Assembly (NCBI GenBank): GCA_964016885.1
Contig: OZ024743.1
Coordinates: 110,546,001-110,610,000, forward strand
Origin: Eledone cirrhosa
Taxonomy: Eukaryota
DNA: 64,000 nt
Direction of reading: 5' to 3'
In this document: piece by piece, positions 18,600 to 64,000 of the stretch
Position numbering within the stretch: the stretch's first letter is position 1
Layout: the number at the start of each line of letters is the position of its first letter
Notes under the pieces: model-generated
Seen by the model: the letters and a program-made list of their open reading frames with translations, nothing else
Databases searched by the model: none
Told to the model about the DNA's origin: nothing
Made by a program: the position numbers and the translations under genes

Positions 18600-20967
18600 A
18601 CTATGTAGAGTGTGGGAGAGTTACGTGGTAATTGGTTAAGAGAGGAAGGTTGGAAGAGTGTGTTGTATATTGGATATAGAAAGGGAGGAGGGGATTGATG
18701 TTTAATGATGTAGAGAGGAATTTGAATAGAGTTCCGTGTAGTGGATATAAAGAGGGGCAGGTTATGGCGGTAATCCACATGGAGAGGGGGAGAGTTTGGT
18801 GTAAATTGATATAGATAGGGATATTAAAGTAAGTTCCGTTTAGTAGATATAGAGAGCGGGAGGGTTTGATGATAATTGATCTATAGAGTGCCCTTCTAAG
18901 AGAGTTTCGTGTATTATATATACATAGGGGGAGATATGTTGTTAATTGATATAGAACGGGTATTAGGAGAGAGTGTTGTATGGTTTATGTAGAGAGGAGG
19001 GAGTTTGGTGGTAATGGACATATTGAGAGAATTGATATTGATAGGTATTGGTAGATATCGGTATTGTAGAGAGAGAGAGAGAGTTTCGTATTGATCGATA
19101 GAGTGAGAGGGATTGAGAGAGAGTGCTGAATGGTATATATATATAGAGAGAGAGGTGCATAGTTTGGCGGTAAGTGATGTAGTGAGGGGTTTTTTGAGAG
19201 TGTATTATATATAGTGAGGGGGAGAGTATGAGGCTCATTAATACAGAGAGGGGTATTGAAAGAGATTTCCGATAGTATATTTAGAGAGGGGGAGAGTTTG
19301 GTGCTAATTGATATAAAGAGGGGGAATGGGTACCTTGTAGTAGATGTAGAGAGGGGGAGTATGGTGTAAATTGATATAGAGAGGGGGATCGGAAAAGAGT
19401 TATGTGTAGTAGATATAGAGAGGGCGAGAGTTTGGTATAAATTGATATAGAGAGGGGATTGGAAGAGAGTTCCGTGTAGTAGATATAATAACGGGGAGAG
19501 TTTGGTAATACTTCATATAAAGAGGGAGATGGGAAGAGAGTTCCGTTTAGTAGATATAGAGAGAGTGAGCGTTTCGTATTAATTGACATAAAAGGGGGTT
19601 TGAAGAGAGGTCCGTGTAGTAGATATAGAAGAGGGGAGTATTTGGTGTTCCTTGATATACAGAGAGAGATTAGTAAAGAGTTTCGTGTAGTTGATATAAA
19701 GAAGGGGGAGAGTTTGGTGTTCCTCTATATAGAGAGTGGGAGTGGAAGATAGTTCCGTGTAGTAGATATAAAGAGGGGGGAGTTTGGTGCTAATAATATA
19801 GAGAGTGAAATTTGAAAAGCATGTTGTATGTTTGATGTAGAGAGGGGAGAGTTTTGTGGTAATGAATAGAGGGAGTGGATTGATAGAGATAGCTATTGAT
19901 AGAGAAAATGAGTGGGATAGTTTGGTAGTGATAGATAGATTGAGGGGGAATAAGAATGTGTGTAGTATGGTAGATATAGAGCGGGGATAGTTTGGTGGTA
20001 ATTAATATAGCGAGGGGTTTGGGGAGAAGTTTTTGTGCAGTAGATATAGTGTTGATTAGAGTTTGATGTTTATTGATATTGGAAGATAATTCCGTGTAGA
20101 AAATATAGAGAAGTGATAGTTTTATATTAATTGTTATAGAGAGGGGCATTGGTAGTGAGTTCCGTGTAGTAGATATAGAGATAATGAGAGAGAGTCTTGT
20201 ATGAAAGATATACAGAGGGGGATAGTTTGGTGGTAATTGATATATAGATAGGTGTGGGAGAGTGTGTTTTAGAAGGGAATTGGAAGGGAATTGGAAGATA
20301 TTTCCTCGTAATAGATATAAAGAGTAGTAGAGTGTCGTGTTATTTGATATAGAGAGGGGGATTGGAAGATAGTTCCGTGTAGTAGATATAGTGAGACTGT
20401 ATGGGTGATATAGAGAGGGGTATCGTTTAATAGTAAATGATATAGAGAACGGCGTTTGGAGAGTGAGTTTATTATTAGATACAGAGAGGTGGTTGGAAGA
20501 GAGTTCCGTGTAGTAGATATAGAGAATGGGAGAGTTTGATTTTTATTGATATAGAGAGGGGGATTAGAAGAGTTTACCATGTAGTAGATATATAGAGAAG
20601 GCTATACTATGGTGTTAATTGATATAGAGAGTGGGAAGAAAGTACTGTGTAGTAGATATAGAGAGGGCGAGGAATTGTTGGTTGTAGATATACAGAGAAG
20701 GATAATGGGAGAGTTCCGTGTATTAGATAGAGAGAGTATGAGAGTTTAGGGGAGGTTGATATACAGAGGAGTATTGGAAGAGATAAGTGTAGATGTGTAG
20801 ATATTCATAGAGAGTGAGAGAGTGTATTAGTCTTAGATATAGTGAATGGAATAAGAGACGCGGTGTCGTGGTAGGTATAGAGTGTTTGTGTTTGTTTTAG
20901 TAGATACAGAGAGGAGGATTAAAAGATAGTTTTGTGTGATAGACATAGAGCAGGGGAGAGTTTGGTT
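18600..20967. repeat. Diverged ~70-bp purine-rich tandem array (roughly 30+ units)
   Basis: The tagtagatata motif recurs at ~19407, 19477, 19548 and 19617. Unit is approximately gagagtttggtgtaaattgatatagagaggggattggaa + gagagttccgtgtagtagatatagagaggg. Confidence 0.9.
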
Positions 20968-52993: not shown

Positions 52994-54285
52994 ATTGAAA
53001 AACAACATTACTATTATGTATGTGTCTCACGTTGAAGAGCATGAAATTGAGAAAGAAAATAAGAGAACATTAGTGATAAGAAAACACTATGATTATTGAC
53101 AAAGTTCGGACAGTTCCGTATCCTATCTGCAGAGAAGAAGTTAGTGTAAACGCTCAATAAATGCAATCGTTTAGAAAATAAACACTATCAATCGGGTATG
53201 CTTTTCAGTATAATTGCAATTCATCGTTCGTTTCCGATTGACTGAATATAAGCACATTGATGATGATGTGTGCGGTGGTTTAAGTTTTACTCTAAACATA
53301 CAATTGATTCAGGTAGCTGCAAAAGCGACGGTCGTCTAGTCTGTAGCGCGTGAAAAATAACATCGTTACCGTCTGAGAGTCTCGATTATATGAACATAGA
53401 CCTAGCTGTAGTAACATAAATAGAAAGACTATATTGTTTATTTTGTTTCTTCCTTGTACTTGTTGATTCTTATACTTTATATCTTCACCATCACCACTAA
53501 CAAAATTACCACCATTACATCCAGTAACAACAACTTCGTTTAATTGAGTGATATTGAACGTCTGTAGACGCCATTAACATTGAGAGAAAGAAAATATAAG
53601 GCAGCAAATTGTTATGCAAATAATGAAACAGAATAGCCGAAAGTAAAAATGAAACTAAATCAGTCAAAATCCTACATCGCTCATATGCATTATGGGATAG
53701 AATGACAGACCTTCAATTCGTTGTATGCTTTCCTTTCAATACTCTAGCTTTTATTTTATATGTATTTATTGAAAGATTTGTTTTGCTTCGCTAACGGTTA
53801 CAAACAACAAAAACATGACAGATAAAACATTCAGAAATATGTATTAGGTATTAATGTTCTACACACATGGTCACTGATATATAAATTCTGACACATTGAG
53901 AGTTGCGTATAAACGAACGTTTATATATTTATGGTTTATATGTGTATATTTTCCTTTTCCATCATATACAAAGCAATAGACAATATAAGCACATATAGAC
54001 TCATATTAAATGAATTTCGAATATGTATACATTAATAATTAAACACACACCTCACATTCGTATGTTTTCAAAACATGAAAATATATGTAGTTTATACATT
54101 TTGTGAATACAACAAATATTTAGCCGTCATATATATATATAGGTGTGTGTATGTGTCAGTGTGTGTATGCGTGTGTGGCTGTGCTTCTGTGTATCTGTGT
54201 GTGAGTGTCTGCATGTATAAACATACATATATTTGTATATATATTTATATGCATATATATATATATATATATATATCTATATATA

Positions 54286-54423
54286 GGAACGAGTAGGACC
54301 CCGACGGCTGAGCTCAAGCCGTTTCGACGGCTAATTCTGGACTAAATTTAGTCCAGAAGTACCCTAAGTATTGAGTACGTTGGTGCGTTATGATCCATCT
54401 GGTTCCTTACCACATTTCCTTCG

Positions 54424-54425
<2 letters not shown>
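54286..54425 (+). mobile_element. Family A mini element
   Basis: ggaacgagtaggacccc...ctggactaaa-tttagtccag followed by a truncated tail. Confidence 0.85.
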
Positions 54426-54472
<47 letters not shown>

Positions 54473-54609
54473 TACATCTTTTTCCTGAAGGTTCTTTCAG
54501 AAAACAACACCAAATTTCACTACTAATCATATAAAAAAATTGAAAAAACAGAAGTAAGTTTTACCACAACGTTATGATTTTGTGTTGTTTTTTTCTATTC
54601 AAAAATTAG

Positions 54610-54669
54610 CAGTCTGATGAGGTCATAGCTTTGGCATAATTGTTATCACTGAAATGTATATAACACTGG
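54610..54669 (+). ncRNA. Degenerate family H hammerhead
   Basis: cagt-CTGATGA-ggtcatagc...gttatcact-GAAATGTATATA-ac-actg. Confidence 0.5.
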
Positions 54670-55073
54670 CTATGTATGAATTAAGTTAACTTTAACCTGT
54701 CAAATTACACTTCTAATATATGAATATACTCAGGAGTAAACATACACACATCCATATTCATGTGTCGGAATTAACCAACACATACGCGTATTAATCATAC
54801 ATTTATATATATGGAAGTGAGTGTGAGTATTCAATACCGAAGTAGAGTTTCAATAATCTTTATTATGCCTGTATGTTGAATCTCCAGAATAACAAGACTC
54901 AACACTTAACTATTAACAGAACGGGAATTAGAATATGTCTCATTTTATAGCATGCACATCCATAGCGATTATAGAGGTATCATTCATGTGGTTATATCCC
55001 AACTTAATAAATAGTTGTTCACGATCAGTGTATATATGTATCTCAGTATCATTATATGTTAGTAGGCGGGGAA

Positions 55074-55465
55074 GGGCGGTGGCTTGGCAGTATCGGTAAA
55101 GGTAAGGACACCATGCTCTGACGTATAGAGTTACGGCCCTTGCCATTCTTAGTTCAGATGCCGCCGAGGTTAACTTTGTCTTTCATCCTAACGGGGTCGA
55201 TAACATAAAGTACCAGTAATGCACTGGGTAATTTCCGGCCTTGTGCCAAGCGTAGAAACAATTATATATTAGTAGGCGGTGGATTGGCAGTATCGGTAAA
55301 GGATCGGACGCCATACTTTGCAGCGAACGTTACGGCGCTTTATGGTCTGTGTTCAAATCCCGCCGAGGTTAAATATGCCTTTCATCCTTACGGGGTCGAT
55401 AAAATAAAGTACCAGTAATACACTGAGATAATTGCTGGCCGTGTGCCAAAAGTAGAAACAATTAT
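55074..55465 (+). mobile_element. Two tandem full-length tRNA-derived SINEs (55074-55265, 55275-55465)
   Basis: Each has A and B boxes, the central domain and the gtagaaacaatta tail. Confidence 0.9.
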
Positions 55466-56180
55466 ATATTACTAGCAGCTGCTTACTTTGAATTTGAAGT
55501 AGTTCATACCTCAGCACCTCCAGTTATAGGCTTGCGAAGAAATTACTGCTCGACATCATTAATGTGAATATAATGAAATTAGTTTCGTGGAAAGCAACTC
55601 ACTACAATATTGCAACATTACAGTTGAGATGTATTATCTGAGGTAAACTATCTTCTTCTAATTCTGGCGTAATTATATAAAATGTATATTTAGTAGATTT
55701 ACAAAAGTAAATACATCTTGCAATTAGATACAACAAAATATTTAAAAATTACGGTAAAATTTATTTTCGTTTTTCGGCTTCTGTATACCAAAACAAAAAT
55801 ACCACATACTATCTACAGGCAAAATATGAATTCAGCTCATAATTAAAGTAATATGTATAATATGTATGCATTTTGATTTTTCTAAAAATTACAATTTCCT
55901 GTGAAATCATAAATAGTTTTATAATTAATTTATATATCAAGAAATGTAAAGTTACACATCAATTTCTTTAATGACGTAAAAACATGTGCGAGATATACAC
56001 TATAAATCAACAGTAATCTTTATCTTTCTTTTTCAATTGGCAAAGTATATCGTTACAGGTGAAATATTAACAACGATTGACTGGCTTTTCCTCACCTCAC
56101 TCACACCTAGTCATACAGGCAAACACAAACACACATGCACAGACGCACACACATACAAACACACACACATATATACACAC

Positions 56181-56265
<85 letters not shown>

Positions 56266-56423
56266 CACTCACAAATATGTCTGTGTACATGTGTATTTGT
56301 ATACGTATACGTGTTTATATAAATATATTATATAGACATTTTCAATATATTAACATTTATATATTTAGAATATTAAAAATAGTCGTTTTGGAAGTCTCAA
56401 CAATGCAGATGTGTATATATATA

Positions 56424-56502
<79 letters not shown>

Positions 56503-56726
56503 ATATATATGTACATATATATGTATATATATATATGTATGTATATATATATATATATATGTGTGTGTATATATATATGTACATATATATGTATATATAT
56601 ATATTTATATATATATATAAATAAATGTATATATAGTGTATTTTGCAATACACTTTATGCTCAATTAAAAGCATTTTGAAGACCGTATGCTATTATTTTA
56701 GTGTAGTGACAGACTCACCTACTTTA

Positions 56727-56821
56727 ATCTCAGCAAACAGGGGGAGATAAAGCCGACAAGGCGTTGTTTCTGCATTTGTTAATGCTTATCAAGGCCACTA
56801 CTCCCTCCCGTCTGCTGAGAT
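56727..56821 (-). ncRNA. Type-I hammerhead with U3-A8 core and extended helix I
   Basis: Minus gcc-TTGATAA-gcatt(aaca)aatgc-a-GAA-ACAA(cgcc)TTGT-C|ggc, enclosed by atctcagcagacggg...gggag / ctccccctgtttgctgagat. Confidence 0.8.
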
Positions 56822-57282
56822 CACAGATGTTATATTCTTAATGAATTCTAGTAAATAATCAGGACCTGATTATACAGAGCGGTTGCCGGTCAAGCAGAAA
56901 CTAAAAAATTAGAATAGGAGCTCTGAAATAGCCATATATATATGAATGTATATATAGTGTATTTTGCAATACACGTTATGCTTAATTAAAAGCATTTTGA
57001 AGACAAATGCAGAAACAAGGTCTTGTCGGCTTTATCTCCCCCTGTTTGCTGAGATTAAAATAAGTGAGTCTGTCACTACTCTAAAACAATAGCATACGGT
57101 CTTCAAAATGATTTTAATTAAGCATAAAGTGTATTGCAAAATACACTATATATACATTCATATATATATATGGCTATTTCAGAGCTCCAATTCTAATTTT
57201 TTATTTCTGTTTGACCGGCAACCGCTCTGTATAATCAGTAACTGATTATTTACTAGTATTCTATAAGAATATAACATCAGTG

Positions 57283-57377
57283 ATCTCAGCAGACGGTAGG
57301 GAGTAGTTGGCCTTGATAACCATCAACAAATGCAGAAACAAGGCTCGTCGGCTTTATCTCCCCCTGTTTGCTGAGAT
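57283..57377 (+). ncRNA. Second family F hammerhead (stems II and III partly mutated)
   Basis: gcc-TTGATAA-ccatcaacaaatgca-GAAA-caaggctcGTC-ggc within the same long helix I. Confidence 0.65.
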
Positions 57378-57510
57378 TAAAGTAAGTCAGTCTGTCACTA
57401 CTCTAAAACAATAGCATACGGTCTTCAAAATGCTTTTAATTAAGCATAAAGTGTATTGCAAAATACACTATATATACATTCATATATATATGGCTATTTC
57501 AAATCTCCAA

Positions 57511-57554
<44 letters not shown>

Positions 57555-57562
57555 GTATTGTT

Positions 57563-57633
<71 letters not shown>

Positions 57634-58126
57634 GTATATATGATAACTGTCACTTCTTTACAGAAGACGCGCATCTCCTCAACGAATTCCCTGCTATTAT
57701 GTATTAGCACCAGCTGTATGCTGCTACACAATTTCAAACTGAACAGGCTTAGTTTACGTCACTTTTCTCGGAACATCCCTGTGTTGTGGGTGAGAAGTGC
57801 GTCCCTAATGAAGGCTGCTCAAATGCTCAAGATTATGCCGAAGGTTAACCGTGCAGCGATGTGAAGATAAGGCTCAATACACCAACGTGTAGATTACTGA
57901 TTATTTCCTTCAAACCAATCGACTCTGCACATGTTACCATTCCTCCATTGGGACGTGGGAAGAGATACTTGCATACACAAATGGTAATGGTACGTGTTTG
58001 CGCTACACATAACATCCCAGCAGCTATGTGTCACGTGACAAACCAAAGCAAGGTAAAAGGACTGTTACGAAGAGTGCTAGTGTAATTGTCATGGAACTTA
58101 ATCTCCCCAGGGAGTGTATCTGCATT

Positions 58127-60130
<2,004 letters not shown>

Positions 60131-62817: not shown

Positions 62818-63070
62818 TATTTTCTTCTGTTCGTGTTATAACTACTTGTGCACAGAGGGTGGGATTGGCTCAGTGCACAGTATTTTCTTCTTTTCGTGTT
62901 ATAACTACTTGTGCACAGAGGGTGGGATTGGCTCAGTGCACAGTATTTTCTTCTTTTCGTGTTATAACTACTTGTGCACAGAGGGTGGGATTGGCTCAGT
63001 GCACAGTATTTTCTTCTTTTCGTGTTATAACTACTTGTGCACAGAGGGTGGGATTGGCTCAGTGCACAAT
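62818..63070. repeat. Four near-identical 63-bp tandem units
   Basis: tattttcttcttttcgtgttataactacttgtgcacagagggtgggattggctcagtgcacag, four times. Confidence 0.95.
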
Positions 63071-63202
63071 ATTTCCTCACTTTAAGAAATATATTCACGT
63101 ACAGGCATTGCACGATATAATTAATTAATAATTATTAATAGTGTTATATCGTGCAATGACCATACTCGATAACGAAGGGGCAGCCTTCATGTAAGTATGT
63201 AT

Positions 63203-64000
63203 ACCTGGCCGTCCTATTGTTTCTCCGTGCAACTGCTCCACCGAGATAATTTCTGAATAATTAGACACCATCCTCATCCCATTGGTCGGCAATCTCCCTC
63301 CCACATCCACGATACATATCATGCCCTTAGACTTTTCAAGCTCTTTTCCTTCCCTCTTGGTCCCTCCCACCTTCTCTTTACCCTGGACATCAACTCGCTC
63401 TATACCCTCATTCCTCATGATGGCGGCCTGCGCGCTCTCCAACACTTTTTAGATTTACCCCTTACCCCAGCACTACCACTTTTTTCCGCCTGGCTGAGCT
63501 TGTTCTCACACTAAATGGCTCTTCTTTTTCGGATGAATTTTATCAGCAGGTCTCTGGGGTAGCGATGGGAAGCAGAAAGGGTCCAAATTATGCCACCTCG
63601 TTTCTTGGCTACGTCGAAACCAGATCTTCTCCCAGTATGCCGGACCGACTCCTGAGTTACACGGTGGCTATATCGACGACTGCATCGGCGCCACCATTCT
63701 ATCACGAGAACAGCTCGACTGTTTTCTTTCTGTTGTCCTATCTTTCCACCCTGCTCTCACATTCACCGCCTCCGTCTCCGATTCTTCTGTCGCTTTTCTA
63801 GATATATCTCTATCTATTAATCAATCTGACCACACCCTCTCTACTTCCATCTTTATTAAACCAACAGACTCCCAATCTTACCTCAACTTCATCTCCTCCC
63901 ATCCAACCCACACCAAACACTCCATACCCTATTCCCAATTCCTCCTTCTTCGTCGGCTATGTAGCCAGGACGTCGATTACGAAACCCATTCCCTTCGCAT
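63203..64000 (+). pseudogene. Neptune-type PLE reverse transcriptase, frameshifted, runs off the window
   Basis: PGRPIVS, FTLDINSLYT.IPH, GVAMGS..GPNYA, YIDDCIG, AFLDI, KPTDS..YL...SSHP, SIPYSQFL.LRRLCS. Confidence 0.9.

Follow-up and report, generated by a model that had tools for sequence, protein, structure and literature searches.

A probable non-LTR retrozyme family with a covarying hammerhead core and a Penelope-like insertion footprint in the genome of Eledone cirrhosa

Metazoan non-LTR retrozymes, described from coral, mussel, and axolotl, consist of ORF-less tandem units of 170 to 400 nt with one type I hammerhead per unit, a GC content below 50%, and a self-paired fold, and it is proposed that Penelope-like elements (PLEs) mobilize them (PMC7229834); the family analyzed here resembles them in all of these respects. 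It likewise resembles vertebrate retrozymes, which are non-autonomous and co-occur with PLEs (bioRxiv 10.64898/2026.07.22.740005). That source argues from 35 genomes, with no mollusc among the groups it names, that animal retrozymes are non-autonomous PLE sequences. Among the PLEs themselves, the Neptune/Nematis-like EN+ elements share with the family tandem and inverted copies, a tail at one end, a (TA)n target, and a hammerhead upstream of the 3' end (PMC8557442, PMC11167929). Inverted 5'-truncated copies, the one-end tail, and the (TA)n bias count as PLE traits (PMC8557442). The tail corresponds to the interval between two internal start sites of the reverse transcriptase (RT), both DNA strands being cut and extended, and in vitro the insertion dispenses with hammerhead cleavage and uses unprocessed RNA as its main substrate (PMC11167929). 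Rare variants of the hammerhead core reduce the rate (PMC7151607). About 1,300 matches with a U3-A8 pair have been reported in Schistosoma mansoni, whose Cercyon PLE hammerheads have both this covariation and the palindromic helix III region in common with the present family (PMC4209133). For a cephalopod, the giant squid, 235 Rfam hammerhead hits are on record (PMC6962438).

The window analyzed here, a stretch of 64,000 nt of E. cirrhosa (contig OZ024743.1, positions 110,546,001 to 110,610,000), carries at 56611-57517 one copy of a dispersed family of ORF-less tandem units of about 320 nt, with two arms head-to-head between (TA)n tracts (Table 1). The original prediction of a retrozyme-like RNA had named two GTC sites, the sequence TTGATAA in both complete hammerheads, a long interrupted helix I, and four hairpins, and all of these were recovered at their positions: helix I is paired over about 25 bp with an internal loop, and the hairpins lie at 57232, 57257, 57129/57451, and 57430. 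The tandem GTC sites are indeed present, 322 nt apart, but the first lacks an upstream core because its arm begins in helix II. Complete hammerheads were also correctly claimed for both strands, but both have been damaged since insertion: the plus copy has C for G10.1 and its helix III is broken, while the helix III palindrome of the minus copy carries one change, so that neither represents the source sequence of the family. In both, one additional A stands between C11.1 and G12; this trait of the subfamily had been overlooked. The plus-arm hammerhead is probably inactive. No ORF of at least 60 aa lies within 56690-57449, frames touching the ends pass through microsatellite, and the 322-nt unit has a folding z of -4.4, with 0 of 100 shuffles equally stable. 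Every sequence-level feature of a retrozyme was found except an Rfam match, with cleavage and circles predicted: over 54000-60000 there was no Rfam hammerhead match at E<=1 for these variant and damaged copies. The Rfam matches that did occur there were discarded as microsatellite-driven miRNA and similar chance matches.

Table 1. Parts of the retrozyme-like insertion and its target tracts, in window coordinates
Feature	Position	Strand	Remarks
Left (TA)n-rich target tract	56414..56635	.	Overlaps short arm end
Inverted arm, 1.23 units (unit position 72 via cleavage site to 144)	56611..57004	-	Runs 57004 to 56611; ends at "short" 3' end inside left (TA)n tract
Minus-arm complete type I hammerhead	56726..56822	-	Core TTGATAA 56792-56786; helices II and III of 4 bp each; additional A ahead of G12; predicted to be cut after 56755
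Forward arm, 1.60 units (unit position 299 via two cleavage sites to 170)	57003..57517	+	Ends at "long" 3' end
5'-truncated hammerhead (helix II 3' strand, GAAAC, helix III, GTC)	57005..57027	+	Without upstream core; GTC 57025-57027
Complete 322-nt unit between successive cut sites (predicted monomer/circle)	57028..57349	+	
Plus-arm complete hammerhead	57281..57379	+	Core TTGATAA 57313-57319; helix II 57320-57333 (G10.1 mutated); extra A 57334; GAAAC 57335-57339; helix III damaged; GTC 57347-57349
PLE-type "tail", 26 nt, at this end only (unit 145-170)	57492..57517	+	Last 7 nt as in long end of co-resident autonomous PLE
Right (TA)n target tract	57516..57641	.	

A search of the species' own genome (G000; 3.0 Gb) yielded 2,329 candidates, 40 of which were scored, spread over many contigs. 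Exact matches to a helix III 16-mer numbered 985 for the stage of the window and 493 for an older stage, and exact junctions of the long 3' end with (TA)n numbered 1,015, with 0 matches for the reversed controls in each case; the family occupies about a thousand or more sites in the genome. Related copies were also found among contigs of sequencing run X1. Loci were taken from the 30 best matches, from position-ordered matches to hammerhead patterns on contig C1, and from 90 position-ordered 3'-end matches, a sample unselected for the ribozyme and reduced to 89 loci by removal of one segmental duplicate; overlapping duplicates were removed before counting. One insertion plus its flanks occurs both in L037 and in L039 (G000:C1, ~34.67 and ~35.90 Mb), and L274 and L276 form another such pair, as segmental or tandem duplications.

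Across the genome, the units measure 316-322 nt and contain one type I hammerhead each, no ORF, and no LTR, and the arms reach about 5 units, so the non-coding, more-than-unit-length tandem copies read from the window are a property of the whole dispersed family. In 93 loci, the 3' ends cluster at unit positions ~144 and ~170, and the 5' ends are evenly scattered. These loci include 66 head-to-head pairs (53 long with short, 2 long with long, 1 short with short, and 10 with another end), and 47 of 58 short ends adjoin TA repeats, in agreement with the PLE-style inversion into (TA)n that had been proposed. The family insertions sit in (TA)n, a repeat target that would mask any target-site duplication. 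A 5'-inverted arm, a tail at one end, and an AT-rich target, the marks of PLE mobilization, are thus all present, and an autonomous PLE of the same genome shows the same pattern.

The compensatory U3-A8 core, a claim of the original prediction, characterizes most of the family, although such a core is not new in view of the Schistosoma matches. Among 112 copies from 70 of the 89 loci of the 3'-end sample, the 3:8 pair was UA in 96, CG in 14, UG in 1, GA in 1, and CA in 0, i.e., a type I core with either the covariant or the canonical pair; the parser demanded a near-match to the core, which in part forces the remaining core bases to look invariant. In the same copies, two or three Watson-Crick states are seen for each of helices I, II, and III. 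The 156 cores of the hammerhead-selected sets comprised UA 143, UG 8, CA 2, CG 0, and other 3. Covariation was assessed in the two window copies and in 32 low-decay copies, left from 33 candidates once L066, with its poly-G insertion, had been removed. Of the 26 helix pairs, 10 changed on both sides, the 4 pairs of helix II all among them, and 98.7% of the cells were paired, compared with 34-44% when slid; the rows are related and were chosen for low decay, and shuffle counts are therefore not probabilities. The core lies between three helices, of which helix I is open, as in type I hammerheads, and all three covary. Judged by these double-sided changes, the ribozyme fold is under selection.

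A tree of 138 of the 176 loci forms a single ladder that leads from C3-G8 to U3-A8 (branch support 100/98; no intermediate sampled), with a bootstrap that is not fully settled. The switch is followed by three successive changes of helix II, between which the extra A was gained and lost, and compensatory changes along the lineage affect all three helices. U3.G8 was rejected as an intermediate, as it forms a later side branch of 3 sampled loci. The most diverged relative found, a single copy (L080), again has U3-A8, which indicates that the 3-8 pair switched at least twice. The flanks also contain other recurrent C3-G8 type I hammerhead families that are unrelated to the retrozyme unit (L032:1747, L037:954, L046:894, and L030 (-)311).

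That the family works like a retrozyme is strongly supported. With a probability of roughly 0.7, we regard it as a non-autonomous non-LTR retrozyme of ~320-nt hammerhead units, whose tandem transcripts are predicted to self-cleave and whose monomers are likely circularized and likely reverse-transcribed into (TA)n by a co-resident PLE. The basis of this reading is the combination of dispersed copies, the lack of an ORF, head-to-head arms that pair a long with a short 3' end, arms that continue past the cleavage site, units that were alike at birth, a conserved and covarying hammerhead fold, and a fast source lineage. In the proposed cycle, tandem copies would be transcribed and then cut by the hammerhead, probably as a dimer via the palindromic helix III; dimer cleavage is proposed because the monomer is predicted to adopt an "off" fold. 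A host ligase may circularize the monomer, by analogy with RtcB (PMC7229834). By analogy with the PLE mechanism (PMC11167929), the PLE protein would nick both (TA)n strands and prime two cDNAs at internal sites 26 nt apart; the RT would go around the circle 0.2-5 times, and microhomology would join both cDNAs head-to-head. Every such cycle would pass through a single-unit bottleneck and thereby give rise to a ladder of subfamilies.

The off fold is a thermodynamic prediction on related sequences; for 51 of 62 low-decay copies, the prediction has nucleotides 2.3-G5 paired to the 5' strand of helix III. The active monomer fold lies a median of 5.2 kcal/mol above the minimum in the 62 copies, a gap that is 1.2 kcal/mol for the C3-G8 stage. 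The natural helix III of 8 out of 10 multi-copy haplotypes ranks among the 2-19% of possible palindromes that best stabilize the off fold. The alternative helix is predicted to survive three changes of helix III and to persist along most of the lineage, and it is missing in the youngest haplotype and two C3-A8 mutant copies. Such an off-switch would fit both dimer-only cleavage (PMC4209133) and the unexplained stability of circles (PMC7229834), but the energetic cost of the active monomer also counts against the retrozyme cycle. Further points against it are that only 1 of 9 predicted Xenopus retrozyme dimers was cleaved in vitro (bioRxiv 10.64898/2026.07.22.740005), that PLE insertion does not need hammerhead cleavage (PMC11167929), that the extra A before G12 lasted for several stages, that the U3.G8 branch spread at all, and that two loci, L263 and L182, depart from the common pattern (see below).

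The source lineage itself evolved fast. From the C3-G8 stage to the youngest copies, the backbone accumulated ~0.44 substitutions/site (104 parsimony changes in 237 columns), while the terminal branches drop from ~0.03 to ~0.01 along the ladder. Terminal branches give a slope of -0.059 (137 loci, p=3e-7), and half the divergence within loci, taken at 47 loci, gives -0.078; these slopes correspond to a ratio of 13-17. When 16-mer ascertainment was made equal, the age came to 2.3% for the C3-G8 stage (8 loci) and to 1.8% for the broad stage of the window (40 loci; p=0.11). Six older insertions met by chance in flanks have a mean age of 4.5%, and one of them is at a raw distance of 24% from the youngest copies, which sets a rate floor of about 5-fold. 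On these estimates, change in the source lineage outpaced the decay of the inserted copies (~2-3% ageing) by a factor of at least 5, and of ~13-17 on the tree. The terminal repeat of the co-resident PLE, with ages of 0-2.7% (11 two-armed loci), is near star-like without a ladder, 42 of 47 rows being within 7% of the full-length element L138, a control in which 21 of the 47 rows were picked by an exact 16-mer. The backbone changes are rich in transitions (67% vs 50%, p=0.001), and plus-strand ADAR editing was not supported as the cause (A>G 23 vs T>C 21).

Rapid serial retrotransposition and RNA-to-RNA copying could each explain the fast lineage, and the data do not separate them. RNA-to-RNA replication of retrozymes has been raised as a possibility (PMC7761336, PMC7229834), with RNA heterogeneity and minus-strand retrozyme RNA as published hints (PMC7761336). 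An extension of the retrozyme reading, which we hold only tentatively, is therefore that between insertions the circle is also copied by a host polymerase in the manner of viroids or HDV, and that the genome preserves the fossil series of a quasi-autonomous RNA replicon. The long backbone over short terminal branches, the similar ages of the stages beside the older, distant insertions, the star-like PLE repeat, and the transition bias would all be expected. Many fast retrotransposition cycles through unfixed insertions and an error-prone RT would, however, also speed up the lineage, the PLE control is partly ascertained, and the PLE repeat may be more constrained. In addition, the antisense strand of the unit has no hammerhead core, and the predicted circle is branched, with ~62% of it paired, rather than rod-like. 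Were it true, and we would sooner bet against it, a viroid-like circular RNA would replicate from RNA to RNA in an animal germ line and be archived by a Penelope RT as a dated fossil series, including at least two whole-pair 3-8 switches and a conserved off-switch that protects the circle from self-cutting.

Less probable is a linear template, i.e., that uncleaved read-through transcripts of genomic tandem arrays are inserted, with no circle and the hammerhead kept for protein binding or rare cleavage. The internal start and in vitro preference of the PLE RT for unprocessed RNA (PMC11167929) and the predicted off fold of the monomer speak for it. Arrays copied in this way would inherit unit-to-unit differences and shorten at each 5' truncation, but the units started out alike over a lineage that gained more than 100 changes, with arms of up to ~5 units, and the catalytic 3-8 tertiary pair was switched as a pair. 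In the 3'-end sample, chosen by the 3' end only and with 86 of 89 arms placed, the cleavage site is reached by 68 long arms, of which 63 continue beyond it and 5 end no more than 6 nt from it; stalling at the site was not significant (5 stops vs 2.9 expected, p=0.16). The junction across the cleavage site is intact in 334 of 337 copies with both flanks. Divergence amounts to 3.5% between units within an arm, 3.8% between arms of a locus, and 7.4% between loci, and half of the divergence seen within loci, 1.7%, is no larger than the terminal branch, 2.1%. Only 12 of 179 differences between adjacent units (28 pairs) involve lineage alleles, with 10.6% of columns polymorphic nearby and no mosaic excess. 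Both results indicate units alike at birth, as expected from one unit read repeatedly, and since such arms cross the cleavage site for up to ~5 units, a circular template for insertion is favored. The exceptions are L263, a five-unit array in which three units share a deletion that the other two lack and two share a core mutation, and L182 (1225-1525), in which both arms begin exactly at the cleavage site; the unlike units of L263 are what a linear template would predict.

The candidate partner is an abundant, young PLE family represented by L138 (G000:C1:145868800-145876800), a full-length autonomous element with a 938-aa frame that matches RT and GIY-YIG endonuclease. A CxxxxCxxC motif ahead of the endonuclease makes it Neptune/Nematis-like by published criteria (PMC8557442), its two terminal repeats, 4,979 bp apart, each contain a U3-A8 hammerhead, and a 16-mer from it has 15,204 exact matches genome-wide. 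Named homologues of the protein come from bivalves or their symbiont assemblies. Many of 20 sampled loci of this type show the long/short head-to-head pattern, with an arm half-divergence of 0.9% (9 pairs), and their age overlaps that of the retrozyme. The long ends of both elements are identical in the last 7 nt, beyond which no longer homology was found between the retrozyme unit and the sampled PLE repeats. At L067 (1361-2267), a retrozyme dimer arm is fused head-to-head with the last 96 nt of this autonomous PLE at a 2-nt microhomology, possibly as a two-template chimera. Architecture, age, the 7-nt match, and this one chimera make the L138-type PLE the best candidate partner, not a proven one; other PLE families target (TA)n too. 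Other supposed chimeras were rejected: L172 and L003, with PLE-type repeats head-to-head, are readable as insertions into existing elements, and L035 and L061 are tail-to-tail neighbors within one (TA)n. In the L138 family, which also includes L137, L139, L140, and L144, the terminal-repeat hammerhead combines U3-A8 with GUA at the cut and a helix III that is short and palindromic, and further PLE-type ends with U3-A8 occur in L125, L153, L156, and L161.

Alternatively, the unit might be the terminal repeat (pLTR) of an autonomous PLE yet to be found, the loci being its 5'-truncated copies. The ends, the inversion, and the target are as in PLEs, U3-A8 is common to the PLE hammerheads of this genome, and the loci read around GIY-YIG matches were 50 out of 10,596 candidates. 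Comparison of the unit with these 50 loci revealed no parent PLE carrying the same repeat, only separate retrozyme insertions and matches in TA stretches. The unit itself has no ORF for RT and GIY-YIG and is preceded by another unit, an inverted arm, or unrelated flank, and the PLE protein had no match leading in sense into a retrozyme arm in 160 tested loci (overlapping duplicates included). Truncated PLE copies run back into the body of the element, but retrozyme copies go around the unit again. The possibility named at the outset, that copies are always the terminus of an ORF-bearing PLE, did not hold, as no copy ended a PLE ORF in the sampled loci (for the 60 loci L211-L270 on the basis of flank comparison only). 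A pLTR origin thus appears quite improbable.

The window contains further repeats. Broken PLE RT fragments at 63210-63998 have 35-39% identity to the L138 frame (E 2e-24). On the minus strand, 58182-58290 is a PLE-type 3' end by (TA)n in which a canonical CTGATGA core goes with GAAA and a long helix II. This minimal hammerhead belongs to a different family and recurs in the flanks of L161 and L267. On the plus strand, 54490-54715 has CTGATGAG at ~54614, with a hairpin and GAAA behind it, and ends near TTCTAAT and then TA; a further PLE family, one with a C3-G8 hammerhead, probably has its 3' end here. A TA-flanked repeat of ~140 nt with internal inverted segments (54286-54424), which recurs in L007, L140, L151, L156, and L246 among many, is likely another non-autonomous (TA)n-targeting element. 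Two tandem ~200-nt SINE-like copies (55075-55475; TRF period 200) presumably represent an octopus-type SINE. Tandem arrays are found at 19200-20783 (71 nt, 23 copies, degenerate) and 62818-63074 (63 nt, 4 copies).

A repeat at the level of DNA (minisatellite, MITE, or rolling-circle DNA element), whose hammerhead look-alike is decayed and without function, would account for the missing Rfam match and the damage in both window copies. Short dispersed arrays whose 3' ends are fixed and whose 5' ends are random, together with double-sided changes in every helix and the 3-8 pair, make it very improbable.

Hammerhead descriptors fixed on the canonical CUGANGA would miss most of the family as well as most of the largest sampled PLE family of the genome with its U3-A8 hammerheads, and the family itself is a natural compensatory-mutation series for the hammerhead. 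The mover of animal retrozymes becomes testable through the two-start-site PLE footprint and a candidate full-length partner, RNA replication of retrozyme circles through the rate difference between lineage and copies, and the way in which circles avoid self-cleavage through the predicted alternative helix.

Our literature search, made outside Repbase and most subscription papers, found no cephalopod or U3-A8 retrozyme, no paired long/short retrozyme ends, and no lineage rate. The family is a real non-LTR retrozyme family, previously unlisted as far as searches show, in which the core is a variant one and the genome bears direct signs of mobilization by PLEs. The retrozyme class and U3-A8 are known; the 138-locus ladder with its three-helix compensation and fast backbone appears to be new. 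In contrast to the metazoan non-LTR retrozymes described so far (PMC7229834), the family has had the U3-A8 core for most of its lineage, is known here from genomic sequence alone, and forms dispersed insertions of 1-5 units with PLE inversion, a one-sided tail, and (TA)n targets instead of visible target-site duplications. For the vertebrate retrozymes, mainly of Xenopus and with local tandem expansion, the link to PLEs is co-occurrence and pLTR homology (bioRxiv 10.64898/2026.07.22.740005), whereas here it is the insertion footprint, with only 7 nt of homology to the sampled PLE repeats. The Cercyon hammerheads of S. mansoni are minimal motifs, mostly single and tied to PLE repeats (PMC4209133), whereas the present ones are tandem, with a helix I of ~25 bp, a helix III of 4-5 bp, and both core states in one dated lineage. 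Unlike the EN+ PLEs (PMC8557442, PMC11167929), finally, the family has no RT/endonuclease frame, and the whole element comprises ~320 nt.
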